The notes under the pieces were generated by a model. That model saw nothing but the letters and a program-made list of their open reading frames with translations, did no database searches and had not been told where the DNA came from. The translations under genes and the position numbers were made by a program. Shown here piece after piece: positions 6,510 to 29,703 of a stretch of DNA of 64,000 bases. This DNA comes from a phage. The stretch lies in NCBI GenBank assembly GCA_017676145.1, contig GCA_017676145.1_3628.1; one strand, 5' to 3'. Position 1 is the stretch's first letter, and each line of letters starts with the position of its first letter.

Positions 6510-8000
6510 TTAAATAGTTTGTTGGAAAGTTATATTGCTTTCATCGAGGTCAAACACCTCGGTCATGTTCGCAACAACATCGTTTGTAGTGTAAGCTTCG
6601 TCAGAGGCTCCTACAGGTTTAACTTGAATTACCAATCTGTTAAATCTGCCTATCGACACAGCAGCCGATGCAGCACCTACCAATTGGATATTATACAACG
6701 TATCGGCAACATCTAAGCCGTTAACAACTTGCAAAAGAGCCTCTGTAATGGCATCTTTTTCGGTAGTAGAAAGCGCAGCACCTGAGTAGGTAATTCTCAT
6801 ATCCAGGCGGTAAGTGTTTGCCTTAGAATAATAAATCCTTTCAGTCTGACCGTCTGATGTGGTAATATCGTAGAAGATATTCCCATAAGTTCTATTTGTG
6901 CAAGCTATGGTTTGATACAGCGCCTGACAGATATCCTCTGTTGCACCACCGAACACCACCACTTGAAACTTATAAGGTGGTATACCTTTCGCATCCGTTT
7001 TATCGGTGTTGTTAGAGAACACTCTTACTTTCTCAACACCCTTCACCTCGCTTACAGCGCTAAGGATTGCAGGACGGGTAGCTTTAGATGTTAACTGTTT
7101 AGTGCTGGAAGCTCTTAAGCGATACTCTGAGTCCTTCTCAACATCCCTGCCCTCATTGAATCTTTCTCGGTTGGTAAGCTTGATAAATCCGCTGGGAGTA
7201 GGCGACATTGTTGTCACGGTTTCTGCCTCTCTTGACAGCTCACCAGCCTCGTTAGCTATAACATCTAAGGTGATAGTTCTTTCACCTACAATCGGGGATA
7301 CTCTGAAATCTACTCTGCTATTAAGACCAACTTGATCAAGATTCGAATTGTATCCTATCCACAACGTTCCTGTCAACATATCGATCTGAATCAAATCGTC
7401 GTTCAACAGGGTTGTATTATCTACAATGAATTGCTTAATCTCGCCGTAAAAGCTTGGTAAATCAGAAGAGTCCAGAGACTTATCGGTTAAAACCAGACTT
7501 TTTGTTTTGATACTTCCATCTGTCTGGTTGGTAATTTGAAAGTTGTATTTACCAATCCTTAGGTCTGGAGCATTTATTCTGTGAGCAATAAGATTCCCTG
7601 CTACTTGCACATCGTTGCTAAGAACAAAGTTGCCACTGTCCAGCGTATAAGTTTTGGAATCATAAATCATATTGTACGGCACAGTTGTGTTGATTGTCAA
7701 CTGGCAAGTACCCGATGATTTAGAACGGCCTCTTCGGTAAATACCCTGTCTTCCAAGAAGCTCATCCAGGTAAATACCTTCTGCCCCATACAGCGTCTGT
7801 GATGCGTATACAGATGCTGCCATAAGAATAAGTTGATACTCTCGCTCGTTGAAGATAGTGGTCAGCTTATCTGCAACGGAGTTACTCTGTACGTTGAAGT
7901 TTTCGCCAAAAGCACGGATCAGGCTTTGCTTAGTTTCAACGATTAGGTCATTTAGGGTTGGTATAACGAAACCAGCCTCTGTCAATCCATACTTAGCCAC
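6510..8000 (-). CDS. hypothetical tail or fibre-associated protein
   Basis: 496 aa ORF in tail module; no motif recognised. Confidence 0.35.
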   Translation of the reverse strand: MAKYGLTEAGFVIPTLNDLIVETKQSLIRAFGENFNVQSNSVADKLTTIFNEREYQLILMAASVYASQTLYGAEGIYLDELLGRQGIYRRGRSKSSGTCQLTINTTVPYNMIYDSKTYTLDSGNFVLSNDVQVAGNLIAHRINAPDLRIGKYNFQITNQTDGSIKTKSLVLTDKSLDSSDLPSFYGEIKQFIVDNTTLLNDDLIQIDMLTGTLWIGYNSNLDQVGLNSRVDFRVSPIVGERTITLDVIANEAGELSREAETVTTMSPTPSGFIKLTNRERFNEGRDVEKDSEYRLRASSTKQLTSKATRPAILSAVSEVKGVEKVRVFSNNTDKTDAKGIPPYKFQVVVFGGATEDICQALYQTIACTNRTYGNIFYDITTSDGQTERIYYSKANTYRLDMRITYSGAALSTTEKDAITEALLQVVNGLDVADTLYNIQLVGAASAAVSIGRFNRLVIQVKPVGASDEAYTTNDVVANMTEVFDLDESNITFQQTI

Positions 8001-8105: not shown

Positions 8106-11100
8106 TTAGTCGTGAGACTCGTTCCAAGGTCCCTGGAAGCTTGAGTTAGAACGACTAACGATCACAGTGGGACAGGAGATTGTGACACCTGTCACGCTAG
8201 ACGTTGACCACGGTGTGTAAATCTCGATAACAATGTCTATAGTTTGTTCACCCAGACCTGTTATCCCTACCGCACACATGCCGTTGTTGTCGTTAAAATA
8301 CTTCTTGCCAGCAAGGATCTGATGACCAGCTATCCATGCATTCAGTTGGGAGCTGGCAAGAGTACCATTCAGTTTAAAGAAGAATGTTACGTTCTTACCC
8401 TGACCTGAAACGTTATCTACGTATCTCCACCTCCAACGGCAAACCCTTTGCTGGGAGTTATATACTGGAGCACAATCCCCGTAAGTCCTGTGTGCAACAA
8501 TTGCACCTTCGAACTGGTTAGCGCGGATAACAGAAGCTTCTACACGACCACGGAAGGTACCTCCGGTTGCATCTATGGTGCCTCTAAAGCTACCATTATT
8601 GGCATAAACATCCCCACGGAAGGTACCACTGGTGGCGTTAACTGCCCCTGTGAAGTTACCTGCACTAGCGTTGATGTTACCTTTCACCCACACATCCATA
8701 AACTGGGCGTGCCCGTTCTTGTTAATATACCAACCGTATTTGTGGTACCCGTTGCCATCGTAGTTGTTAGACGAAATTTCTTGTGCAATCTTGGCAGAAG
8801 AGATCGTCCCGTTCTCTATAAAGGCATCTTTCAAGAACGCTTGGTTGTTCTTAATTGCGAAAGCAAGGGTTGCTGTTCCATTCCCAGGGTTGTATACCGC
8901 AAAGTTGTTTGCACTAACCATGAAGTATGATTGAACTTGGCCTCCAGAACCTTCCATGCCCAATTGGATACCTGCCACATACTTATTCCCTGCGGAGTCT
9001 ACCTGTATTTTTGTGCCCCATTGAGCATTTACTTTGCCCTCTAAGTCGGTCACAGCCTTAGATGTTGTAGCCACTGCAGCTCTTAGCTCTGATACATCCC
9101 CAACATCATCAATGATCTCCTGCTTAGCAACAGCAAGTTCTTGACGAATAGCTGACGCTGTGCCGTTAATAAGATCCACAGTTGCTTTGTTGGTATCGGA
9201 GATTGTAGCGTCCAGTGCTGTTTTTGTGGAGGTCAGCTTACCATCCAAATCCGCAATCGCCTGTTTGTTGGTAGAAATCTCCCCACGTGCAGAAGTTATC
9301 TGCTCAGACAGTGCGGAGGTTTTCTGATTCAACAAATCTGTGGTGGCCTTGTTGGTATTGGCAATCAAGGTATTGAGATCAGTTTTTGCGGTAGTTATCT
9401 TACCATCAAGGGTGGCATAGTTCTTAGATACCGTCGCGTTTGTCTGACTGATCTTTTGATCCAGAGTTTCAGAGGTCCTGTTAAGAAGATCCACTGTCGC
9501 CTTATTGGTGCTCAAGATGCTTGCGTCAAGTTCTGTTCTCTGGGTATTGATCTTGCCATCCAGAGTTTTATCTCCGGCAAGGTATCCGCTCTCCACTCCA
9601 CCTATTTGTTCTACCAACTCCCCTTTGGCTGCAACCAATTTCTCGTCTAAAGCCTCTGTCTTTTTGTTCAGAAGATCAGTGGTTGCTTTATTGGTTGTCT
9701 CAATCAGGGATGCCAGTCTTCCACTTTCAGTGTTCAGATCGTTGGTGAACTTGTTCTGTGCAGCAACAAGTTTCTTATCCAGCGCTGTGATATTGCCATT
9801 GACATCCTCAAACTTCTGAGTTGTCTCTGTAACTACAGCACCTATCCTATCCCCAAGTTGTTGGAATGCCTCATCTACCCTTCCGTCCATGTACTTGTTA
9901 AGTTCTGTGACACGATTTTCAACCTCTTCAATAGAGGAATCTAAAGTGCTCATCAACTCTTTATAAGTTTCTGTCTTTTTAAATTCAGCATCTATCTGAG
10001 GCATCAAATCTTCAATGGAGGTATAGCAGCGTGCAGCACACTCTACAAACTGAGAACTACCAAAAGCATTTGTGGTTCGAATATACCAATAATAAATCTT
10101 ATCGTTCTGCAGACCTTCAGATGTCCAAGTTGAACCAACACCCATGCGGGTGGCTTTTGAAGTAACGGTTGCATCACTTGTGTCCGGCAACCTTGTCATA
10201 CCAGATGTCCAAAAGTCATACTGGGTGCTTACACTTGCCAAGTCCCTACTGTGTGGAATCAGGGTGATAGCAAAGTACCCCTGCTTAACTTCTACAGAAA
10301 CCGGAGCTTCAGGTGCCTGAATGTTAAACTCGCAGTACGCTTCTGGAGATACACCGCCTTTATAAGATGTTGCAACCACGGTTGCTGTGTATGACCCTTT
10401 GGTCAATCCTTCTACGCGGACAAACTGCTCGACTGTTTGTGCTGTCCAAATAATCTCTCCGTTCTTTCTTACCTGCACAATATTTTGAGCGTAAGTCCCA
10501 ACGTTGTCCCAAGCTAAAACACCGTGAGTTACTTCTCCAGCTTGGAGAACGGAATATCTGAAGTTTTGCGGTTGAGCTACACCAGATGGGGATATCGGAA
10601 TATCTACATCGCCAGAATCCGGAAGTTGCCCTGTGGCATCATTCCACTCTTTAGCATCTTGACGAAGTTTTACCTTGACACCGCCCTTTTTGGTGAACTC
10701 CCATTCAAGAACCCTCATTTCTTGGCCCACTATACCAATACTTGGGAGGTCCATTGTAACATAACGGCCAGGCTTAAATTTAAAACCTCGCATATTGCAG
10801 GTGACTTCAATAATCCTGCCAGCTCTAGCACGTCTTAAGAAGATTGCAGAAACACGTTGAGCTTGATAAGGACTGGTAACAAAGCGATAGTCTATATCGA
10901 TTATCTTTCTTTCTCCATCCTTCTCTATCCACTCTGGTACAAACACTGATGGGAAATCTGTTTCAGAATACCCTTTGGTCGGACTAGTGAATCTGCCAGT
11001 TATCGTGTTAGATCTTTTGTCAAATGAGGCTTCCGGATAGATCTTAACCTCACCACAGACACAGTCCTCACTCAATGTCATTGTTGCCGGACCATAGTAT

Positions 11101-11945
11101 GCACCAACCAGCAAACCATACTTACCAGCAACATAACTAAGGTCTGCACCGCAAGCTTTCAGCATTTCTGCCATAATACTTGCTGGGGCCTCATCCATGT
11201 CAAACTCACCGTTAATGGTGTAACGTCGCTCACTGGTGCCGTCAGCGTTTTTTACCGCCTCGTCGCATATGTTGGCAGCCTCCTTGAAGGACTCCCAGTT
11301 GATGGTTTCGTCAGGACATTTAAGGTACGTTCTTAAATAGTCTAGGATCACCAAGGCCGCGTTATTGGTATACACCTCTTTACTGGTGCGAGGATCATAA
11401 CATTTTTTACCAACCTTGATGAGTGTAACGTTTGGCAACCCAAAAGGAAACTTGTTAGGGTCAAACCTGAAGCTAACACGTAGCCAGCTGATCCCTCTAC
11501 CTATCATGTCCGGTGACCACGATGGGCAGTGTGTGCCCATGAAAGGATCAGAGGTTTTTCTGTCGTTATGTAGCTCCCACGATACCAAATCTCCATACGA
11601 AGAAATAGGATTACCGTCGATAAGTATATCTTCTATACCTTCTAGCGGGTGATTGGCAAGAACAATGGCACAATGGAGGGTTCTGTCTCTATCCTGCTCC
11701 AAAAACGCAAGCAATCCAGATGTGCGTGTCTTCCCATACACTACAGAGCAAGGTGCAGCAGAAGATCTGAGAAGCTTTTGTCTATCTTGCTGACTTCTGT
11801 AAGATTTGTTACCCTCGAAAATCTTATCCAGAGTTCTGGTGGTAACAGTGTTCAGACTGTCAGCCAGAGCTGCCTTGGATGCGTTCCAGTCATAGCTTGA
11901 AGATCTTGCAGAAGCAACGATGTTATCAATCATTGCAATTGGCAT
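8106..11945 (-). CDS. lambda J-like host specificity protein (central tail fibre)
   Basis: 1279 aa; fibronectin-III-like segment (IQAPEAPVSVEVKQGYFAITLIPHS) and C-terminal block KYVAGIQLGMEGSGGQVQSYFMVSANNFAV resembling lambda gpJ ([30 protein letters not shown], recalled from memory); central coiled-coil repeats. Confidence 0.65.
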   Translation of the reverse strand: MPIAMIDNIVASARSSSYDWNASKAALADSLNTVTTRTLDKIFEGNKSYRSQQDRQKLLRSSAAPCSVVYGKTRTSGLLAFLEQDRDRTLHCAIVLANHPLEGIEDILIDGNPISSYGDLVSWELHNDRKTSDPFMGTHCPSWSPDMIGRGISWLRVSFRFDPNKFPFGLPNVTLIKVGKKCYDPRTSKEVYTNNAALVILDYLRTYLKCPDETINWESFKEAANICDEAVKNADGTSERRYTINGEFDMDEAPASIMAEMLKACGADLSYVAGKYGLLVGAYYGPATMTLSEDCVCGEVKIYPEASFDKRSNTITGRFTSPTKGYSETDFPSVFVPEWIEKDGERKIIDIDYRFVTSPYQAQRVSAIFLRRARAGRIIEVTCNMRGFKFKPGRYVTMDLPSIGIVGQEMRVLEWEFTKKGGVKVKLRQDAKEWNDATGQLPDSGDVDIPISPSGVAQPQNFRYSVLQAGEVTHGVLAWDNVGTYAQNIVQVRKNGEIIWTAQTVEQFVRVEGLTKGSYTATVVATSYKGGVSPEAYCEFNIQAPEAPVSVEVKQGYFAITLIPHSRDLASVSTQYDFWTSGMTRLPDTSDATVTSKATRMGVGSTWTSEGLQNDKIYYWYIRTTNAFGSSQFVECAARCYTSIEDLMPQIDAEFKKTETYKELMSTLDSSIEEVENRVTELNKYMDGRVDEAFQQLGDRIGAVVTETTQKFEDVNGNITALDKKLVAAQNKFTNDLNTESGRLASLIETTNKATTDLLNKKTEALDEKLVAAKGELVEQIGGVESGYLAGDKTLDGKINTQRTELDASILSTNKATVDLLNRTSETLDQKISQTNATVSKNYATLDGKITTAKTDLNTLIANTNKATTDLLNQKTSALSEQITSARGEISTNKQAIADLDGKLTSTKTALDATISDTNKATVDLINGTASAIRQELAVAKQEIIDDVGDVSELRAAVATTSKAVTDLEGKVNAQWGTKIQVDSAGNKYVAGIQLGMEGSGGQVQSYFMVSANNFAVYNPGNGTATLAFAIKNNQAFLKDAFIENGTISSAKIAQEISSNNYDGNGYHKYGWYINKNGHAQFMDVWVKGNINASAGNFTGAVNATSGTFRGDVYANNGSFRGTIDATGGTFRGRVEASVIRANQFEGAIVAHRTYGDCAPVYNSQQRVCRWRWRYVDNVSGQGKNVTFFFKLNGTLASSQLNAWIAGHQILAGKKYFNDNNGMCAVGITGLGEQTIDIVIEIYTPWSTSSVTGVTISCPTVIVSRSNSSFQGPWNESHD
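9100..9800 (-). repeat. in-frame tandem repeats (about 100 nt units) inside the J-like gene
   Basis: protein shows repeated TNKATTDLLN / TNKATVDLLN / TNKATVDLIN units; matching DNA units such as tggccttgttggtattggcaatcaagg and ttgctttgttggtatcggagattgtag. Confidence 0.4.
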
Positions 11946-12382: not shown

Positions 12383-12936
12383 ATGATCGGGCGGCTCGCC
12401 ACCTGATCCACATATTTAAAAAATCTGTCATTATCGTTTCTTGAGCTATGGCTTTCCTCTGTGTATCGGTAAGGAAAACCTCTTAACCAGCTGTTGAAGA
12501 TGGAAGAGATGGATATGGACAAAGCACTATTCTCCCCTGTCTGAATAGCCATGTCCGTTATAAGGCCGTCAAACAAGCCATTAGTTGTAACAGGCAAACC
12601 ATTCTCCATAGCGGTGATATACAACGTGGCACGGCAACCGGAATACTCAGTCTTCAGAAGATCACCTACATACTTGGGATCAAACCCGTTCAATGTTGCT
12701 ACCACAGATCCGAAGTTGGTGGCATCTTTCTCAGACACAGCAGTCAATGTTGCTGATCCACCTATCCCTATAAAATGTTGCCCCTCAATAACCACAACAC
12801 CAGTTCCTGAGCACACCCTGACAGTCCCTGTTGGCAGCTCTAGCTTTGCAGCAATTAAGATCTCAACACCATCAAGCTCTAGCTTTTCAAGAAATAAATT
12901 ATCTAATGGCGCTCTTATCATCTTAGAAATCCTCAA
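12370..12936 (-). CDS. minor tail protein (hypothetical)
   Basis: 188 aa ORF overlapping neighbours; operon position. Confidence 0.3.
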   Translation of the reverse strand: MRISKMIRAPLDNLFLEKLELDGVEILIAAKLELPTGTVRVCSGTGVVVIEGQHFIGIGGSATLTAVSEKDATNFGSVVATLNGFDPKYVGDLLKTEYSGCRATLYITAMENGLPVTTNGLFDGLITDMAIQTGENSALSISISSIFNSWLRGFPYRYTEESHSSRNDNDRFFKYVDQVASRPIIWEV

Positions 12937-13513
12937 AGAAGTTGATAACTATATTGTCACCTTTCTGCATAGCATCAACCTTTTGCTTAATTTTATAAAG
13001 ATCTCGGATATGAAATCTACCCTTCGGAGATTGAGTTATTATTTTCATGGTATCCCCTGCGGCAATGGGTTTCCTAAGTCTTGGGGATATGTTTATAACA
13101 GCGGCCCCAACACCATCACTTCGTACTGAGGCTGTCACCACTTTCAACTCATCATTGACAGATATTTTATCTCCAGCTCTGGCTATATCCCTGTTAGGCT
13201 CCCAACCAACCGTCTTCAAAAAATCGTCGTTACCAGTCGGTCCTAGAGCGATTGGCTCATTGGAGGTCACTGAATGCCCATAAGCCTTGATAAGAAAAAT
13301 GTTTCCATCTTTGTAAACCTGATCAACAAAACTTTTAAGCTCTAACAACTGAGACTCGCTGATATTGGAAACCGTCAAAGTGCCTTTCCAATTAGGTGTG
13401 GCATAGGTTACTTTTTGCGTTTTACCTGTAAACGGGCTTTTAAACGTAACAATATCTGCCAACAACTCCAATCTAATGTCTGGAAGGTATCTAGGCCTTT
13501 CCCATAAAAACAT
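12923..13513 (-). CDS. minor tail protein (hypothetical)
   Basis: 196 aa ORF; operon position. Confidence 0.3.
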   Translation of the reverse strand: MFLWERPRYLPDIRLELLADIVTFKSPFTGKTQKVTYATPNWKGTLTVSNISESQLLELKSFVDQVYKDGNIFLIKAYGHSVTSNEPIALGPTGNDDFLKTVGWEPNRDIARAGDKISVNDELKVVTASVRSDGVGAAVINISPRLRKPIAAGDTMKIITQSPKGRFHIRDLYKIKQKVDAMQKGDNIVINFFEDF

Positions 13514-13570: not shown

Positions 13571-13603
13571 CAATATAAACAAAAAGCCCCCGCCGAAGCG
13601 AGG
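13571..13603 (-). terminator. rho-independent terminator after the large fibre gene
   Basis: CCCCCGC-CGAA-GCGAGGG hairpin with flanking A-run (U-run on minus strand). Confidence 0.5.
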
Positions 13604-13612
13604 GCAAAACAG

Positions 13613-16600
13613 TTACTTCAATTTTCCTTGTAACTCGGTGACAACCTCTGTCAATTTTTTAACCTGTTCCTCAAGGGAGGTTATTCTATCATCTTGTTCT
13701 CTGCAAACCTGAACAAGCAATCCTGTTACAGCAGCATAGTCAACATTATAGAATCTTTCCTCGGTCATCAGAGGAATACCATCTTGAGTAGGACCAGGAA
13801 CCTCTTTCCTTTTCACGAAAGAACCAACCGCTTCAGGTAATGCTTCCATAACCTCTTGAGCAATTACCCCCGCGTGAGGCATACCATTCTCTTTTAGAGT
13901 GTAGGTATAGCCTTTCATCTTACGGATAGCTTCCAGCGCGTTAGGAATAACCTCTATGTTATCCTTCAGGTCACGGTCAGAGCTCTGGCTGACAGCAGTG
14001 CACTCTACTACGCCGTTAACAGCAAGGTACCTTGACTTGGCCTCATCTGTCTTAGCACCACAATGCCATACCCAACTGGCAGATGTAGCGTTGTCGTTTA
14101 TCTGGAACTCAAGCACGTTCTTCCTGTCTGCGCCATTACCCCAGTAGTACATTCTGCCTGTATTAGAAGGCATGTTGGAAGTGTTGGTAACATCAGTCCC
14201 ACCACCTGTATGTATCATGAACTCCGGGTCAAGATTGGAGCCTGCGGTTTTAAGAGTAATTCCCTTACCACCAAGCTGCTGCCAAGGTCCCCATGTGAAA
14301 ACACTACCTATTGTTGTTCCATAACGCAGGAATTTTTCCCCAAGATATGATATATACTCCTGTACGCAACTCTCTGGAACATTGGCGTAGTTCCTGTACA
14401 CTATAAGCGTACCTGCTCGGGAGCATGGGTAGTTTCTATCAGGTGTGGCTTGAGCATTGGCCTCCTGATGATAAAAACCTTCCCTATCCCCTTTATAGTC
14501 GTTAAGGTCATTAACCCCCAGACCTTGCCCTCTGTGTTGTATGACCTTGTTCCACGCTCTATGGTTACCACCCTCGATAGACCTGGTGTATAACTGATCA
14601 AGGCGACCAGCCATTTGGAAAGCATAGTTCCCAGAAAAAGCCACAGACAGTCCACCAACAACCATCGAACCTTCTGGTCCGTTGACGTTGCCAGCCATTA
14701 TTTTGGACGGGTTATTAGGCCCAAACTGGTTGTTCCAGTCTGCACCAGTGTGGCATACAAAACCACCAGGAGCTGAGAAAGTGCCATCTTTGTTGAAGTT
14801 GTAGAATCTGTGAGCAGAACCTACAACATCACGAACAATAACTTGACCAGCCTCTGGAGTAGATCTGAACTCTGCCTGTCCTTGCAGTCTTGCGCCATTA
14901 CCGCATTTAGAGGTAAAGGTATTGTTGATCAGATCCTCTGTTCCTTCCGATGCAGCTTGGAACCCTGCGTTAGAGAACAGTGCTTTTCTAGTGGTTTGGC
15001 TACCCGGGCAAATGTAGTTAAGACCGTTGTACCACATCTCTACAGGGGGCATTTCTGTCTTACTCATCAGAACCATTCGGTCAGGTGTGCCTATATAGTG
15101 CCGATCTGTACTACCGCCTGTATAGAACCCAGGTGTTCCCTTGAACTCCGCAAGAGTCCTAGTGTTTGTTACATCATCACCTTTAATTGCAAGGCTTAAA
15201 TTATCCGACGCAAGAGGGGCGCAAAACTTGACACCATCTTGGTTATTAGTAACATTTCCTACCTGCCAGTCATTTTCTCTGGTAAATACCTCAAGAACGT
15301 TTCTGCTTGTGTAGACACTGACAGGGAAAGCACGCGACTCAACATAGAATGCAACATACTCCTGCTTTCCTCTGGTTGGGGATACACATCCAAGAATTGC
15401 TTTCTCGTTTTGGTAGAAATTAATAACCCCTTGGAAAGAATCCCCTCTGTCTGTCCACCCACCGGTTCTATAGTGACACTGTAAGGTCGCACAGTTCATA
15501 GGGTCACTGCCAGATGACGATCTGGTAACTATAGTAATATCAGTACCAGTTGTGGGCGCATAGTATGGATCTGTTCTAACGATGATTGGGTAGTATTTCC
15601 CATCTTCCATTCCTGCAGTTCTTGGCAGTGTTAAGAAATCTTTTACGCCTGCCGCTACAGGAACTTTGAACAGATTCTGAGCATCTGCTAAAGTTGTAGC
15701 TCCAGTGCCACCTGCGGCCTGAGGTAAAGGTTCCCACTTGGCCTTCCGGTTGTTATAAACACCCCATTCCAGAGTACCATTACCGGACTCATCCATCCCT
15801 CCATCCCAGACGACCATCTTGGCGGCTTTCTTGGAACCCCAGAATCCTCTTTCTGCCCCTGAACTACGAATCCATTCTCCAAGTCCCCAGTTTGTCAGCT
15901 GACCAGTGAGATCCCCGACCTGCATGTACTTAGGACAATCTAATACACCATCTTCACGGAATCCTAAATACCGATGAGTTTCAGATCCTTTTGCGCCTTT
16001 GTGCAGGTGGACTGTTAACCAAGTCTTATTGTCGTTTCTTACCTCGGAGTAGATCCTATACCCATGCTCAAGGACACCGTCAGCACTGTATTTGTCCCCG
16101 TTAACAATACCTGATGCCGACTTAACATCAGCAGAGCTTTGAGACAGGTAAAGGTGCCCGAAGGTAGGGGAATTTCTAGACCCAAGACCGATGTGCGATC
16201 TAAAAGTATCATCGTTACGAGGTCTGACCATTGGCTGCCATGCAGTCCACTGGTTTGTGTTGGCCTGATAGGTTCTTAAATACCAAACATCTACGTTAGA
16301 GAATGGATAGTATTCCTGACGACAGCCAGTGCCACCGTTAGCATTGTTCTGCCAAACAATCAAGTGACCAGCACCAGAACCTGCAGGATAACCATTTGCC
16401 TCAGTTGCATTAGCTGTCATCGGCTGGTAGTATATGCCGTCCTGATTACCAGTCAAGTTATTGATATTGAAATTTGCCTCAAGGGCTGCACGTTGCTTAT
16501 AGAAAGCACCGATATTGATACGGACTCCAGCGGCATCTCTGGCTCCTGTACCGCCTTGCTCTATAGCAAGAGGTTGCCACGAGGCTGTTTGCTGGTTCCA

Positions 16601-17419
16601 CATACCCCAACGGCCTGTTGCATCAAGCTGCAAGTACCCTGCCGTGTTTAAATCATCTCCAGCACGGATAACTGTTCTTGTTGGGTTGTTTGCCTCCAGG
16701 CGTTTAAATTCATCACGAAGTGCTATTCTTTTTGTTGTTGCTACACCGTTGGTTACTGCAATGGTATACATGGCTCCAGAGGTAGCGCCACGGAAAATAC
16801 CATCAACAGTCGTAGTATCACGACGAGATACCACACCGTTCAAAAATTTTTCACCAGCTGCTTCAGAGGGGTAGTTAGTAGTTCTTCCCTCTTCAATAAC
16901 TGCAGGACCAACAAAGTTGACAAGGTGAATAACATCGCCTACAGTATGCACTGTACCAAAATCTACCCGCTGTGCAAGTGCTTTAGCATCGTTGGCTGTC
17001 TGAACCGTAACATCCATTACATCCTGGACAGACTGCCCTTCGGCTGTCATGATCATAGATGCGCCAATGGTAGACTCCAACTCCTCCCTTAAGGACGGGT
17101 CTGTATATACCATCCATGCAGCATCAGTAATCCCACCATCAGAGTACGGTGAAGACAGTGCAGGCACAGTGTGTGGAAATTCGCCTTTCCAACGCAGGTA
17201 GAGGTCTTCCTCTTCGAAGTAGGCAAAATCCATTGGGCCGTTTAACTTACCACCTTCCTTAAAGGAGATTACATGAGAAACAGTCCCATCCACATGGACA
17301 ACATCGCCAATTTTTACACGACGGGTCAGGTCTGGTTGTTGAACAACCAGGTAATCATCCTCTGTCACTGCGGTAGTGGCAGGAAGAGATTCAATTCTGA
17401 CAACTTTAATATCAGCCAT
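13613..17419 (-). CDS. tail fibre or tailspike with C-terminal intramolecular chaperone (peptidase S74-type) domain
   Basis: 1268 aa; C-terminus SSDRDLKDNIEVIPNALEAIRKMKGYTYTL matches the autocleaving chaperone signature; N-terminus shares an anchor motif with 20054-20722; internal duplicated segment. Confidence 0.6.
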   Translation of the reverse strand: MADIKVVRIESLPATTAVTEDDYLVVQQPDLTRRVKIGDVVHVDGTVSHVISFKEGGKLNGPMDFAYFEEEDLYLRWKGEFPHTVPALSSPYSDGGITDAAWMVYTDPSLREELESTIGASMIMTAEGQSVQDVMDVTVQTANDAKALAQRVDFGTVHTVGDVIHLVNFVGPAVIEEGRTTNYPSEAAGEKFLNGVVSRRDTTTVDGIFRGATSGAMYTIAVTNGVATTKRIALRDEFKRLEANNPTRTVIRAGDDLNTAGYLQLDATGRWGMWNQQTASWQPLAIEQGGTGARDAAGVRINIGAFYKQRAALEANFNINNLTGNQDGIYYQPMTANATEANGYPAGSGAGHLIVWQNNANGGTGCRQEYYPFSNVDVWYLRTYQANTNQWTAWQPMVRPRNDDTFRSHIGLGSRNSPTFGHLYLSQSSADVKSASGIVNGDKYSADGVLEHGYRIYSEVRNDNKTWLTVHLHKGAKGSETHRYLGFREDGVLDCPKYMQVGDLTGQLTNWGLGEWIRSSGAERGFWGSKKAAKMVVWDGGMDESGNGTLEWGVYNNRKAKWEPLPQAAGGTGATTLADAQNLFKVPVAAGVKDFLTLPRTAGMEDGKYYPIIVRTDPYYAPTTGTDITIVTRSSSGSDPMNCATLQCHYRTGGWTDRGDSFQGVINFYQNEKAILGCVSPTRGKQEYVAFYVESRAFPVSVYTSRNVLEVFTRENDWQVGNVTNNQDGVKFCAPLASDNLSLAIKGDDVTNTRTLAEFKGTPGFYTGGSTDRHYIGTPDRMVLMSKTEMPPVEMWYNGLNYICPGSQTTRKALFSNAGFQAASEGTEDLINNTFTSKCGNGARLQGQAEFRSTPEAGQVIVRDVVGSAHRFYNFNKDGTFSAPGGFVCHTGADWNNQFGPNNPSKIMAGNVNGPEGSMVVGGLSVAFSGNYAFQMAGRLDQLYTRSIEGGNHRAWNKVIQHRGQGLGVNDLNDYKGDREGFYHQEANAQATPDRNYPCSRAGTLIVYRNYANVPESCVQEYISYLGEKFLRYGTTIGSVFTWGPWQQLGGKGITLKTAGSNLDPEFMIHTGGGTDVTNTSNMPSNTGRMYYWGNGADRKNVLEFQINDNATSASWVWHCGAKTDEAKSRYLAVNGVVECTAVSQSSDRDLKDNIEVIPNALEAIRKMKGYTYTLKENGMPHAGVIAQEVMEALPEAVGSFVKRKEVPGPTQDGIPLMTEERFYNVDYAAVTGLLVQVCREQDDRITSLEEQVKKLTEVVTELQGKLK

Positions 17420-17454: not shown

Positions 17455-20052
17455 TTAAAGGTACAATCCACGGTATTGAGCATAAAGTCCCAGACCGCGA
17501 AGGATTTCGCCAGAGTGATAGCCTACCGGATCAGAAACTGCCCAGCAGCCGTTTAAAACATTATCCCCGTTAATGAAGTGGTGCTTTTGCAGTAACTTCA
17601 CACAGGCTTCTACAACAATATCTATTTGAGGTATTGTCTCTGAATACCCGCAAAGACCTAGCCAGCAGCAACCTGCAAGCCATTCACCTACCACCCACAT
17701 CCTGTCACCTCTGTCTTGATAAGAATATCCTCCTGAGGTGTTAAAGTCTGTAGGGAGATTTCCGGAATGAGATGACTGGAATCTGTTGAGGAACCATGCC
17801 CATTTCTGGCAGAACAGGAACAGTCTTTCGTCAACAGGTTCTTTATGTTTCTTAAGCTCATATAGTGTGCGGCACGCAGCAACAAAGGCTCTTGATTGGA
17901 GTTTAGAGTTATCTACCATCTCCCACCAACCAGTCAACCCTTCATTACCCCTCTGCCATACGTAGCGGGATGCAACTGGTCCTTCTGTTTTAAATGTGTT
18001 ATTATACCAAACTTGGGAGTCGTACATAAATCCAATTGTATTTGCCAATCTTTGACGATCTATGTTTTCCGCACCCATACAGTAGACTACCGGATATTGC
18101 ATTCCGGGATAGGGCCAATTTGGCCTTTCCTCTAGAAGATAATTTTCCTTATCTATCACCTTTCCGGCAGGGAACACACCTGGAGTGTGTCTGTATGCGC
18201 CTTGCTTGTAGTTTCTGACATAGCAATCACCAACCTTGGCGGTTGATTCTGTCTTGCTTGCCATCCATACACTAAACCAGATCAGATAAGCATCCCTATC
18301 TGCAACATAAAATTGCGGCAGCGTGTTGACGCAATACAGATCGAACAAGCCATTACCTATCTGCCTGTCGCTCAGACTGAAATCTACAGAGGTAATTCCT
18401 TTAGGGTTGGCAAAGAAAGGTTTAATCTCATCTTCTGTGTGATGAGGTTGTGTTGGATCTAGTTTAAAATCACCTAGGGTAAGAGTTTCTGTTATCCATT
18501 GTCCGTTAGTGGCATATAGATCAGCATACCATAACCAACGGTCTTTGTCAAGAAATTTGACCCTTACCATCTCATCATCTGATCGATAAGTTACTGAATT
18601 TAAAGAAATCTCTCTTCCAAAATTGAAAGTTACTTTGCCTCTTACTATGTTGCAACGGGTGAAGTTGTCGGAGTGGTTGTAAATGTCGGTATCATACTGC
18701 ATACTAACACTAGCGCCACCGCTTACGGCAATGTTTTCCTCTTTTGGCAAGAGATACGGGTTACCGTCTTTACCAACCACCTCTACGAAATCAGTAACTT
18801 TGGCAACTGTCTCTGTTACTTCTGACCCTCCAAAAGGGACCCCTATCCTATACTGTTTTTTGTTATTGTTGCCATCATTAAGGATGAAATGTGGCTGGAA
18901 CAGAACCCCCTCTCCTCCGAAATTCATAACAATTTCAGCATCTCTGCCTATCTTGTATGTAGTCCCTTTTTGGATTATTTCGCAAGGCTGGCGTGCGTTC
19001 ATTCTAAAATTGATATACCCGTCGCTGTCCCTACTCATGACAGGAACTGTTCCTGCAACGAGACAAGTACCATCTGTGAACGGTGCCTTAATCAACGTGG
19101 TCTTTCTAAACAACTTGTCGTAGGCATTTATATCACTGAAATTAAGCAACTTGTTGTAAGACTGTTTAAACGCGGTGTAATACTTTTCCTCGCCTGTCAA
19201 AGTGTAGAGTTGATAACAAGCGTCACACCACATTTCTTCCCCGTCCAACTCTGGGGCTTGATTGTCTGCAACCACATTTATAGGGTTTACAATTACAGGG
19301 GATCCAGCAGGTATCACCGATCCACCCTGCTCTTGTGGCAATCTCACACAGTAGGTTACCTTGTGGCTGCCTGTAACACCCTTATCCTGCAGTTGGATTG
19401 TGCCGAACTCTGCAGACGTATGACCACTGTCGGCTATGCTACCGTTGGCCCAATAGCGGTTACCATCCCATGCTATATACCACTCAACCCACCAACTTAA
19501 TCCAGATGTTGTCCAATTTGGGTTAGCATCCGTGCCGCCGTAAACATCAGAGTCTACAGTGTTTCTTCCTAGCACACCGTTATACGCTTGAAATGCCTTG
19601 TCTAGGTATTCACCCCATGTCGGAGATCCAGCTGGGATTTTTCCTCTACCATTGGTAAAAGACACCACTACATCTTTAAACCCACCATGTGATGGGACCC
19701 CGTCTGTAGATAATGGGTAGTGGGACAATCTTTGCATTTTACTTTCTACTGCATATGCACCCAGAAGATGACTGTTGTAGGCTTCCCAGGCTTCTTTGGC
19801 CCTATCTAGATAAAAATCGCTTTTCGATGCCCTGTATGCTTCAATGTATCCCAGAATCAACACAGCCTGAGCTTCATGCATTGCCCAATCATTATTTATC
19901 TTACTCCCTGACCAACCTGACGCTATAAGTCCATCCTGGTTTACCAGCTTGTTCTGCGTGGAGAGATTGGTAATGCCTGTGTTATTATCGAGGCACTTCC
20001 TGTGCCCCTCAATCATCTGAAATACGTTATCAATGTTGTGTTGAATACGCAT
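17455..20052 (-). CDS. putative polysaccharide-degrading enzyme (depolymerase-like tail protein)
   Basis: 865 aa; no N-terminal anchor; Trp/Tyr-rich segments; follows a short anchor-bearing protein. Confidence 0.4.
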   Translation of the reverse strand: MRIQHNIDNVFQMIEGHRKCLDNNTGITNLSTQNKLVNQDGLIASGWSGSKINNDWAMHEAQAVLILGYIEAYRASKSDFYLDRAKEAWEAYNSHLLGAYAVESKMQRLSHYPLSTDGVPSHGGFKDVVVSFTNGRGKIPAGSPTWGEYLDKAFQAYNGVLGRNTVDSDVYGGTDANPNWTTSGLSWWVEWYIAWDGNRYWANGSIADSGHTSAEFGTIQLQDKGVTGSHKVTYCVRLPQEQGGSVIPAGSPVIVNPINVVADNQAPELDGEEMWCDACYQLYTLTGEEKYYTAFKQSYNKLLNFSDINAYDKLFRKTTLIKAPFTDGTCLVAGTVPVMSRDSDGYINFRMNARQPCEIIQKGTTYKIGRDAEIVMNFGGEGVLFQPHFILNDGNNNKKQYRIGVPFGGSEVTETVAKVTDFVEVVGKDGNPYLLPKEENIAVSGGASVSMQYDTDIYNHSDNFTRCNIVRGKVTFNFGREISLNSVTYRSDDEMVRVKFLDKDRWLWYADLYATNGQWITETLTLGDFKLDPTQPHHTEDEIKPFFANPKGITSVDFSLSDRQIGNGLFDLYCVNTLPQFYVADRDAYLIWFSVWMASKTESTAKVGDCYVRNYKQGAYRHTPGVFPAGKVIDKENYLLEERPNWPYPGMQYPVVYCMGAENIDRQRLANTIGFMYDSQVWYNNTFKTEGPVASRYVWQRGNEGLTGWWEMVDNSKLQSRAFVAACRTLYELKKHKEPVDERLFLFCQKWAWFLNRFQSSHSGNLPTDFNTSGGYSYQDRGDRMWVVGEWLAGCCWLGLCGYSETIPQIDIVVEACVKLLQKHHFINGDNVLNGCWAVSDPVGYHSGEILRGLGLYAQYRGLYL

Positions 20053-28286: not shown

Positions 28287-29663
28287 TTATTCAGTCATTG
28301 CAACAGCATTGGTGGATTTAGAACCAACTTTGTCCAGAAGGACGTTGATCCGGATACGAACGAAGTGCAGGGCGTTGTTATACACCAGTTCTACTTTCAC
28401 ACCTTCCAGAACACGAGCAGCCAACTGATTGGTTGGGATCTCTGCACGTTTAGGAACTGTGATGATCGGGTCGTAGAACACATTGTTGTCTTCGTCAAAA
28501 CCTGTCAGGATCGCGCCATTCTTAATGCCAGTATTGATCGGGTTGTTCATCAGAACAGACTTGATAACCGGAAGATCATCATCAGACATCTTCATGCTTA
28601 AACCCATATTGGAGCGGCGATGCATGTACCCGAACATGGATTCTTCAGATCTGAACTTGATCCAGTGTGCAAAACGAATAGCGTCTGCATACTGACCTGA
28701 AGCACACTTACCTTCCCAGAAAGCGCCAACACCGTTAATCATTCTATAGAAGTTAACGTGGTTTTCCCAAATCGCCATGCGCTGAGTTAAAGTCAGAGAT
28801 GGTGCAATCACACCCGGCATCTGTTTTAAGTGCAAGCTGTCACCGTAAGACGGATCGTTGGATGCCATAGCGCCTACGATACCACCCTCTGGAAAATCTT
28901 TATCAGCACGAGGATCGTACATGCCGACACTGTCATACTGTGCAGCCATCAGTTTGGTGGCGATGTTATTATCTTTGCCAGTCACATCTTCTGCAGTAGA
29001 GTAGACATGCAGCTTGTAGTTAGCCTGAGCCCACTTGGCACATGCTTCAATGTCGGTGTGGTCTTCATGGCACAGGAAGTACCAATTGTCACGCTCAGCA
29101 TTGATCTTATCAACTACTGTAGAAGGTTTTTCAGCATTGGCGATATTTTTGATTGTGTAGTTACCAGTATGATAACCAACAGTGCAGTTACCAGTGATGG
29201 TGAGAACACCTTCAGCAGCCTCTACAGTGATATCGTTCAAGCTATCATCTGCTTCAATTTTAGTCTTCATTGACTCTGCAATCTGAGTTGCACCTGTTCC
29301 ACCAGAGATAGGCACTATCAAAGAAGTATTGTAGCTACCTTTTGCAATAGTCATTACAACATCGGTATCAGCTGCGGCAGCAATACCTTTAAAATCTACA
29401 GTGGTCTTTTCTTTGGCCTGTCTGCCGATCATAACGTATTGTGGAGGGAATACACCACCAAAAGCTTTTGCTGCAAACTCATACGCTGCAGAGCCTTGTG
29501 CGAAACCATCTTCCACCATCTGATCCAGCTCTGCATATACGCGAGCTCGCTCAGTAAAGTTGTTGTGGATAGCGATGAACAGGGGAGTTTCGAAACCTAC
29601 AGTGTCAATAGGCTGGGTTCCGAGGTTAACTGTAACATCTACCACTTTATCTAAATATGGCAT
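28287..29663 (-). CDS. tail sheath protein candidate
   Basis: 458 aa; position directly upstream of tube candidate; assigned by size and order only. Confidence 0.45.
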   Translation of the reverse strand: MPYLDKVVDVTVNLGTQPIDTVGFETPLFIAIHNNFTERARVYAELDQMVEDGFAQGSAAYEFAAKAFGGVFPPQYVMIGRQAKEKTTVDFKGIAAAADTDVVMTIAKGSYNTSLIVPISGGTGATQIAESMKTKIEADDSLNDITVEAAEGVLTITGNCTVGYHTGNYTIKNIANAEKPSTVVDKINAERDNWYFLCHEDHTDIEACAKWAQANYKLHVYSTAEDVTGKDNNIATKLMAAQYDSVGMYDPRADKDFPEGGIVGAMASNDPSYGDSLHLKQMPGVIAPSLTLTQRMAIWENHVNFYRMINGVGAFWEGKCASGQYADAIRFAHWIKFRSEESMFGYMHRRSNMGLSMKMSDDDLPVIKSVLMNNPINTGIKNGAILTGFDEDNNVFYDPIITVPKRAEIPTNQLAARVLEGVKVELVYNNALHFVRIRINVLLDKVGSKSTNAVAMTE

Positions 29664-29703
29664 TTGTTTCCTCTTAATATCTGTGCACGGATATCAAACA
29701 CGC

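Follow-up and report, generated by a model that had tools for sequence, protein, structure and literature searches.

Introduction

Intramolecular chaperones of the Peptidase_S74 family carry a serine-lysine dyad with i/i+5 spacing (S911/K916 in endoNF, S587/K592 in MYRF) and are cleaved N-terminal to the serine, a reaction that is triggered only in the trimer (PMC8326128). Such a domain was recognized early on in gp41 of phage rV5, a protein found in virions by mass spectrometry, with a coiled coil reported by PCOILS and a C-terminus that matched structure 3GW6 by HHpred (PMC3606486; 2013). The gene was described in the BASEL paper as one of three large lateral-fiber genes with strong allelic variation (PMC8594841; 2021). 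Finally, an atlas preprint describes the fiber class TC12, fitted into the Bas49 and Bas54 maps, as containing pyocin knobs (D7), a 'novel' D42 pseudo-domain that is present twice, and a replaceable C-terminus with either S74 or a lectin-like head. S74 is absent from the virion: in the cryo-electron microscopy (cryo-EM) map of the S74-bearing MaxTheCat fiber (RBP_11, TC12), density is missing for both the peptidase domain and the coiled coil (doi 10.1101/2024.10.28.620165). Here, we analyze a fiber gene of this kind in a 64,000-nucleotide stretch of phage DNA, referred to as the window (GenBank assembly GCA_017676145.1, contig GCA_017676145.1_3628.1). An earlier note, made from the letters of the window, had read its open reading frame (ORF) at 13613-17419 as a large tail fiber with an internal duplication in the receptor-binding region and a C-terminal self-cleaving chaperone domain.

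Identity of the fiber gene

The ORF is present as the earlier note described it, and all five peptides quoted from it were found in the fiber.

13613-17419, minus strand: coding sequence of the predicted gp41-type lateral tail fiber precursor, complete with ATG start, 1268 amino acids (aa) plus stop, 139.0 kDa (ORF list)

By sequence comparison, this ORF is orthologous to gp41 of rV5 and FV3, which forms the variable lateral tail fiber in Vequintavirus myophages. We hold the whole explanation developed here, comprising this identity, the adaptor, the modules, the cleaved chaperone, the variable tip and the cassette, to be very probable. The assignment is based on DNA identity to FV3, on matches to other phage records and on shared gene order. 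FV3_00041, annotated as 'tail fiber protein; similar to rV5 putative tail fiber protein', is 93.8% identical to the window gene at the nucleotide (nt) level, with 100% of the length covered. Altogether, 122 phage records match the gene in DNA, and almost every one is an rV5-like Escherichia phage; coverage of the gene reaches 80% or more in 30 of the 122, and among the matches listed, 23 of 25 show 85-94% nt identity at 100% coverage. At the protein level, 24 clusters cover the fiber completely with 82-93% aa identity, the MaxTheCat lateral tail fiber is 85% identical over its full length, and phrog_6578 (tail fiber) is matched with 1715 bits. The gene is located between a gp42-like and a gp40-like gene, an order that is identical in FV3, NHEP1 and MaxTheCat. 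Orthology and gene order together bear out the large tail fiber of the earlier note.

Up to eighteen records labeled 'Campylobacter phage' (e.g. MG065682.1, MG065647.1 and MG065644.1) carry this fiber gene in similar alleles; their stated host is C. jejuni, and their length is 135-143 kb where listed. On records with an E. coli Vequintavirus fiber gene, C. jejuni host labels look doubtful.

The C-terminal chaperone domain

13616-13981, minus strand: Peptidase_S74 / intramolecular chaperone domain (PF13884), aa 1147-1268, 13.7 kDa
13964-13981, minus strand: codons of the Ser1147-Lys1152 dyad, within SSDRDLK

The C-terminal chaperone was confirmed by a domain search, which places PF13884 (Peptidase_S74) at aa 1147-1198 (E=1.6e-16, 60.8 bits against a cut-off of 22). 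The alignment spans model positions 1-57 of 58, with position 1 falling on Ser1147, and SSDRDLKDNIEVIPNALEAIRKMKGYTYTL occupies aa 1146-1175. The domain reaches the stop codon, an extreme C-terminal position. As for the Ser-Lys dyad, on whose absence the earlier note had been willing to give up its claim, both residues are in place: Lys1152 follows Ser1147 by five residues, at the N-terminal edge of the domain. From 120 collected relatives of the last 145 aa, 45 were aligned with the window sequence, and S1147, D1148, K1152 and the motif GVIAQ are invariant in all 46 of these diverse domains; SDxxxK is found in every S74-bearing homolog. The profile of this alignment matches S16 gp37 (6F45, 3e-19), the MYRF ICA domain (7DC3, 4.5e-11), 8JOV (3.4e-8) and the released chaperone fragment of GA-1 gp12 (3GUD, 0.007), whose crystal chain starts at the serine homologous to Ser1147. 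In these alignments, Ser1147 and Lys1152 correspond to SDRRIK in S16 gp37, A(S)DLRAK in MYRF and SDERHK in GA-1 gp12. The link to endoNF and T5 pb1 is made through the Pfam family and the published HHpred match of rV5 gp41. No other ORF of the 64-kb window contains an S74 or knob domain. The predicted scissile bond is S1146/S1147, and its cleavage would yield a mature chain of aa 1-1146 (125.3 kDa) and a 13.7-kDa fragment.

But could the S74-like domain be a retained, inactive relic that acts as a folding aid or distal cap, so that the virion keeps the full 139-kDa chain? AlphaFold2, run on aa 255-600 and aa 560-1268 with alignments of 32-33 close relatives, predicts a C-terminal helix (aa ~1228-1267) at low confidence and leaves most of the chaperone domain below a predicted local distance difference test (pLDDT) value of 50. 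Moreover, in hmmsearch the S74 profile failed to retrieve endoNF (3GW6) or T5 pb1 (4UW8) directly at E<=1. These points favor a relic, whereas the strict conservation of both dyad residues, the coincidence of the Pfam domain start with Ser1147, the start of the GA-1 gp12 crystal chain at the equivalent serine and the MaxTheCat map, in which the domain is missing, all speak for a cleaved chaperone. We consider a relic highly improbable and infer, with support from an ortholog, that the window protein is cleaved.

Two types of internal repeat

16526-16627, minus strand: repeat segment R1, aa 265-298 (…GRWGMWNQQTASWQPLAIEQGGTGARDAAG), GGTGA codons at 16541-16555
15677-15784, minus strand: repeat segment R2, aa 546-581 (…LEWGVYNNRKAKWEPLPQAAGGTGATTLADAQ), GGTGA codons at 15698-15712
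16205-16543, minus strand: knob domain 1, aa 293-405, hidden Markov model (HMM) E=4.4e-38, in the conserved proximal half
14267-14548, minus strand: knob domain 2, aa 958-1051, HMM E=4.6e-28, adjoining the variable tip

Two pairs of similar segments are found within the fiber: WQPLAIEQGGTGARDAAG at aa 281-298 pairs with WEPLPQAAGGTGATTLADAQ at aa 562-581, both carrying GGTGA, and HLIVWQNNANGGTGCRQEY at aa 352-370 pairs with TLIVYRNYANVPESCVQEY at aa 1004-1022, both lying in knobs. Both similarities go beyond chance. The Smith-Waterman score of the GGTGA regions (aa ~265-331 against ~546-610) is 87, compared to 30.7+/-5.2 for shuffled sequences (z=10.8), and that of the knob regions (aa ~317-396 against ~970-1049) is 115, compared to 31.0+/-5.7 (z=14.6); none of 500 shuffles reached either real score. 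Profile-profile alignment with hhalign gives both pairs a probability of 99.2-99.3%, and R1/R2 99.3%. The internal duplication proposed in the earlier note is therefore real as far as both similarities go, but it does not consist of one duplicated block, because the spacings (281 aa for the GGTGA pair, 652 aa for the knob pair) and the module types differ. The repeats are two different module types: junction segments that bear GGTGA, and domains of the pyocin-knob type.

How old are these duplications? Self-BLASTP of the fiber returned no internal match at E<=10, and looking for direct and tandem repeats in the DNA brought up nothing meaningful. A recent tandem duplication is ruled out, since about half of the 66 nt that were compared agree between the two GGTGA regions. 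As the copies are not detectably repeated at the DNA level, the duplications are old and visible only in the protein.

The knob assignment is based on an HMM of 26 unrelated proteins that included no window sequence and matches the fiber at exactly two places, aa 293-405 and aa 958-1051. A search with aa 295-410 among 1.84 billion cluster representatives found 208 proteins, often with multiple copies. The 26 proteins, taken from these 208, and both window copies follow the pattern NLN.L.G..G.Y.Q; A.A; YP…AG.L.V; C.Q.Y; R; W..W. The resulting 28-sequence profile matches the R1/R2 pyocin fibers (6CL6, 1.5e-11; 6CT8, 2.3e-11; 6CL5, 2.2e-8), and knob 2 on its own matched the R2 pyocin 6CT8 over aa 980-1050 in a single-sequence phmmer search. 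The knob domain is covered by no Pfam or NCBIfam model, and NCBIfam gave no match for either the whole fiber protein or the knob family.

The only other GGTGA motif of the window (…LIVPISGGTGATQIAESMK…) is found in a 468-aa frame at 28290-29693 on the minus strand, which contains no knob or S74 domain. This frame may encode another fiber-type protein.

An optional cassette between the GGTGA motifs

15698-16540, minus strand: optional cassette of 281 aa (843 nt), aa 294-574, bounded by the two GGTGA motifs

The cassette comprises knob 1 and an unclassified stretch at aa ~406-545. Homologs of the fiber fall into several length classes. Those of 1266-1274 aa are window-like. Homologs of 1478-1481 aa share aa 1-1048 and then continue into a different C-terminus without S74, and those of 1447-1712 aa share the fiber up to aa ~1144 and then carry further modules. 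The forms of 1550-1712 aa (P0072-P0120, e.g. P0081) contain a Collar domain (PF07484) instead of S74 and extra GGTG-bearing units, amounting to 5-7 GGTG motifs; their common part ends just before the predicted cleavage site. NHEP1 was rejected as an example of a long allele, as it carries a normal 1272-aa one. The short classes, of 985-989 aa and of 1198 aa, can be aligned to residues 1-331 plus 547-1268 of the window fiber. Since homology to both the 1478-1481-aa and the 1198-aa alleles stops at aa 1048, this residue marks a module boundary.

The short alleles allow a close look at the junction. Their junction peptide, WQPLAIEQ-GGTGA-TTLADAQ, combines the left half of copy 1 with the right half of copy 2. 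In S127 BCL3, the DNA up to the GGTGA codons equals copy 1 at all but two of ~80 bases, and the DNA after them departs from copy 2 at only a few bases, while most positions in the junction region distinguish copies 1 and 2. The single-copy form occurs in one of the 127 GenBank phage records with this region, and distant relatives (50-61% identity; 1314-1712 aa) have knob 1 and both GGTG joints at the same positions. Because the single-copy form is rare and distant relatives already possess both joints and knob 1, the short alleles most plausibly arose by in-frame loss of 843 nt via the 15-nt GGTGA-coding microhomology.

The opposite direction would make the single-knob alleles (985-1198 aa) ancestral, with the 281-aa cassette gained in the lineage of the window. 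The junction is symmetrical, so that the joint sequence alone gives no direction, and movement of knob domains from one fiber to another is known. However, 126 of the 127 records have two copies, the distant relatives just described argue the same way, and the flanks of the short alleles are near-identical to copies that are themselves mutually divergent, which fits a recent deletion. We regard a gain of the cassette as unlikely.

In S127 BCL3 (OQ626344.1), the S74-less single-knob allele of 1198 aa is followed by an extra 110-aa ORF at 6802-7134, whose start overlaps the stop of the fiber gene. The sole match of this ORF is phrog_1361, of unknown function; no Pfam family is hit, and the interval between the gp41-type and gp40-type genes of the window has no equivalent of it.

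We put forward a wider idea as tentative and rather doubtful: conserved GGTGA stretches could serve as general in-frame 'splice joints', at which recombination within the 15-nt microhomology adds or removes knob cassettes, as with the 281 aa lost from S127 BCL3 and related alleles and the extra GGTG-bearing units of the 1550-1712-aa forms, and thereby creates a polymorphism in fiber length or knob number among Vequintaviruses. The same tentative grading covers a separate notion, that S74-less alleles may depend on the phrog_1361 ORF, which would stand in for the intramolecular chaperone as an adhesin or as a chaperone acting in trans. If true, a heritable polymorphism would tune the packing of the fiber against, or its reach past, the other baseplate fibers.

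The variable tip

13982-14266, minus strand: distal tip, aa 1052-1146, most variable part in the ortholog identity and entropy map

Conservation is unevenly distributed among the 24 full-length orthologs. Residues 1-560, which include knob 1 and the GGTGA segments, are 89-100% conserved, with 95-100% for knob 1. Variability rises from aa 961 and is highest across aa 961-1120, that is, in knob 2 and the tip; at aa 1041-1080, ortholog identity is 0.52 and entropy is maximal. In the chaperone domain, conservation returns. The tip is presumed, from this pattern, to be the receptor-binding end of the mature fiber. The earlier note had located the duplication in the receptor-binding region; this applies to knob 2, which adjoins the hypervariable tip (aa ~1040-1120), but not to knob 1 and the GGTGA segments, which lie in the conserved aa 1-560. 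Across aa 1040-1150, the window fiber is 100% identical in aa to FV3, ~84-89% identical to one group of orthologs and ~45-52% identical to the rV5/MaxTheCat group.

The N-terminal adaptor and the central region

16985-17314, minus strand: adaptor/anchor domain, aa ~36-145, with the PF18668 core (aa 46-103) at 17111-17284
14549-15676, minus strand: central region, aa 582-957, containing the best-predicted domain (aa ~599-759)

Pfam places PF18668 (Tail_spike_N) at aa 46-103 with E=1.8e-10 and 41.2 bits against a cut-off of 25. Sequence matches of the adaptor (E=1e-10 to 3e-3) lead to the N-termini of solved tailspikes from branched receptor-binding protein systems (4OJ5, 5W6F/5W6H, 6NW9, 4QNL and 9OCC), and include CBA120 tailspikes, G7C gp63.1 and several new cryo-EM fiber chains. 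By tblastn, the adaptor is also present on the K1F endosialidase (31% identity to K1F aa ~36-120), on the 4MG colanidase and on tailspikes of Salmonella, Dickeya and Kayfunavirus records, and each Vequintavirus genome contains it twice. Branched multi-fiber systems usually dock through this module. With the L-shaped fibers of T5 and the endosialidases, whose signature the earlier note had seen, the window protein shares the chaperone module and, in the case of the K1F endosialidase, the adaptor, but not its body.

In phi92, the endosialidase gp143, which also ends in an S74-type chaperone, comes after the gene of the gp142 deacetylase fiber. By its genomic position, the window gene would be a non-enzymatic counterpart of gp143. 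The analogous slot also brings up an enzymatic alternative, in which aa 582-957 would be glycan-degrading and the protein a tailspike or depolymerase. Against this stands that no hydrolase, lyase or beta-helix match was found anywhere in the protein (Pfam, NCBIfam and PDB sequences), that every strong PHROG match of the fiber is 'tail fiber', that knobs and GGTGA joints are features of fiber shafts, also present in R-pyocin fibers, and that the atlas preprint puts the orthologs in the modular fiber class TC12. For lack of a catalytic-domain signal, the depolymerase reading was set aside, and we judge it very unlikely.

Neighboring genes

17455-20052, minus strand: gp42-like tail protein, 865 aa, upstream on the coding strand (phrog_2871)
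12923-13513: gp40-like distal tail protein, downstream (phrog_1302)
8106-11945, minus strand: J-like central fiber, 1279 aa, downstream (Pfam Phage_Tail_Tip, Ig_J)
13586-13605, minus strand: intrinsic-terminator-like hairpin 8 nt past the stop, GCCCTCGC-TTCG-GCGGGGGC, then TTTTTGTTT

Two small tail proteins are also encoded downstream, alongside the gp40-like protein and the J-like central fiber. The terminator-like hairpin consists of 8 pairs, of which 7 are G-C, followed by a T-run; it comes from a consensus scan and is a pattern match only.

The gp42-like protein has no Pfam or NCBIfam match. In the literature, its orthologs (phi92 gp142) are assigned a poly-GlcNAc deacetylase-like domain in common with N4 gp65 and are linked to ECA/NGR recognition. 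In the middle third of the J-like central fiber, a unit of ~40-45 aa with TNKAT(T/V)DL(L/I)N is present at least four times, and weak coiled-coil-type Pfam matches (SF-assemblin, Apolipoprotein) fall on this stretch. On a larger scale, the GC skew of the window changes its sign near position ~46000, from negative before to positive after, which suggests that two gene blocks are transcribed divergently and that the coding strand switches between them.

A model for assembly and variation of the fiber

Following the mechanism of the S74 family, the 139-kDa precursor would trimerize from its C-terminus, where the S74 domain (aa 1147-1268), with a helical coiled coil at its end, would nucleate the three chains and bring them into register. 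Once the fiber has folded, Ser1147/Lys1152 would cut between S1146 and S1147, as the intact residues and an ortholog suggest, freeing the 13.7-kDa fragment and leaving a mature subunit of 125 kDa. The mature trimer would then dock onto the branched fiber network of the baseplate via its TSP1/gp66-type adaptor (aa ~36-145), probably on the product of the upstream gp42-like gene. From the adaptor outward, the shaft would consist of R1 (GGTGA), knob 1, the unclassified stretch, R2 (GGTGA), the central region, knob 2 and the tip, with the two GGTGA segments forming structurally equivalent joints. The variable region of knob 2 and tip (aa ~960-1146) would be the allele-specific end that contacts the host. 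Between the joints, the 281-aa cassette can be dropped in frame by a crossover inside the 15-nt GGTGA microhomology, as seen in a few natural alleles.

Besides the two points raised above in favor of a relic domain, several others weigh against this model. The 376 aa of the central region (582-957) are unassigned in fold and function. The docking partner is derived by analogy, from gene order and the phi92 gp142/gp143 pair. We infer that RBP_11 of the atlas preprint is the MaxTheCat ortholog of the window gene because the latter is the sole S74-bearing ORF of the 64-kb window, rather than through a stated accession. Finally, both AlphaFold2 models are poor, with mean pLDDT values of 43.9 and 44.9. 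The best-predicted part, aa ~599-759, mostly reaches ~61-85 but drops to 38-52 over aa ~620-669, and the knobs reach 55-75. Foldseek with the low-confidence second model found 6CL5 (E=5e-4) and T4 gp34 (~6e-4) at TM scores below 0.2, and with the first, also of low confidence, nothing significant. The Foldseek matches agree with a knob-module fiber and prove little, and fold-level statements are weak because both models are poor.

What does the analysis add? Every element of the model was already known from orthologs: the chaperone match was published in 2013, the allelic variability in 2021 and the modular TC12 fiber in 2024. The additions made here are modest, namely the module boundaries at residue level, the intact dyad, the exact GGTGA crossover and the 110-aa ORF after an S74-less allele. 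The results confirm that the annotation is correct, provide residue-level coordinates for an FV3-type allele and leave the current understanding unchallenged. The boundaries should be useful for host-range engineering, as they define a site for swapping the tip together with the chaperone (aa ~1048) and a tolerated deletion (aa 294-574).

Comparison with known systems

Finally, we would like to place the fiber in the context of the systems from which its parts are known. With the S74/CIMCD family (K1F endoNF, T5 pb1, GA-1 gp12, S16 gp37 and MYRF), it has in common the Pfam membership, the i/i+5 dyad, the extreme C-terminal position, the GVIAQE motif and a terminal helical segment. In comparison to T5 pb1 and GA-1 gp12, the fiber body upstream of the chaperone is unrelated. 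With the L-shaped fiber pb1 of T5, only the type of S74 module is common; the window fiber shows no sequence match to 4UW7 or 4UW8, and Foldseek against 4UW7 gives E=0.71. With the K1F endosialidase, the N-terminal adaptor and the type of S74 module are common and nothing else, and neither Pfam nor PDB sequences yielded a sialidase beta-propeller in the window fiber.

The PF18668 domain and the matches to tailspike N-termini connect the fiber to the TSP1/gp66 adaptor systems, represented by the CBA120 tailspikes and G7C gp63.1/gp66. However, in those systems the adaptor sits on enzymatic tailspikes, and the phages are of podo- or Kuttervirus type, whereas the window adaptor carries a long non-enzymatic fiber on a myophage baseplate. 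The knobs in turn resemble those of the R-type pyocins of P. aeruginosa (R1/R2; 6CL5, 6CL6, 6CT8/6CU2), with which they share the motifs YP…AG.L.V, Q.Y, R and W..W and the number of two per fiber. In the pyocins, the knobs are adjacent and followed by a foot domain, and a separate chaperone aids folding. In contrast, the knobs of the window fiber are 550 aa apart, the tip is different and the chaperone is intramolecular; furthermore, a Cys conserved in the window knobs (C.Q.Y) is missing from the pyocin sequences.

Orthology over the full length connects the fiber to the Vequintavirus fibers of rV5, FV3 and the BASEL phages (TC12). Their length (1266-1274 aa) and their gene neighbors are alike, and the N-terminal adaptor, the two knobs, the two GGTGA segments and the C-terminal S74 domain are common to all. 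The differences are allelic only: the window tip is the FV3 allele and differs by ~50% from tips of the rV5/MaxTheCat type.

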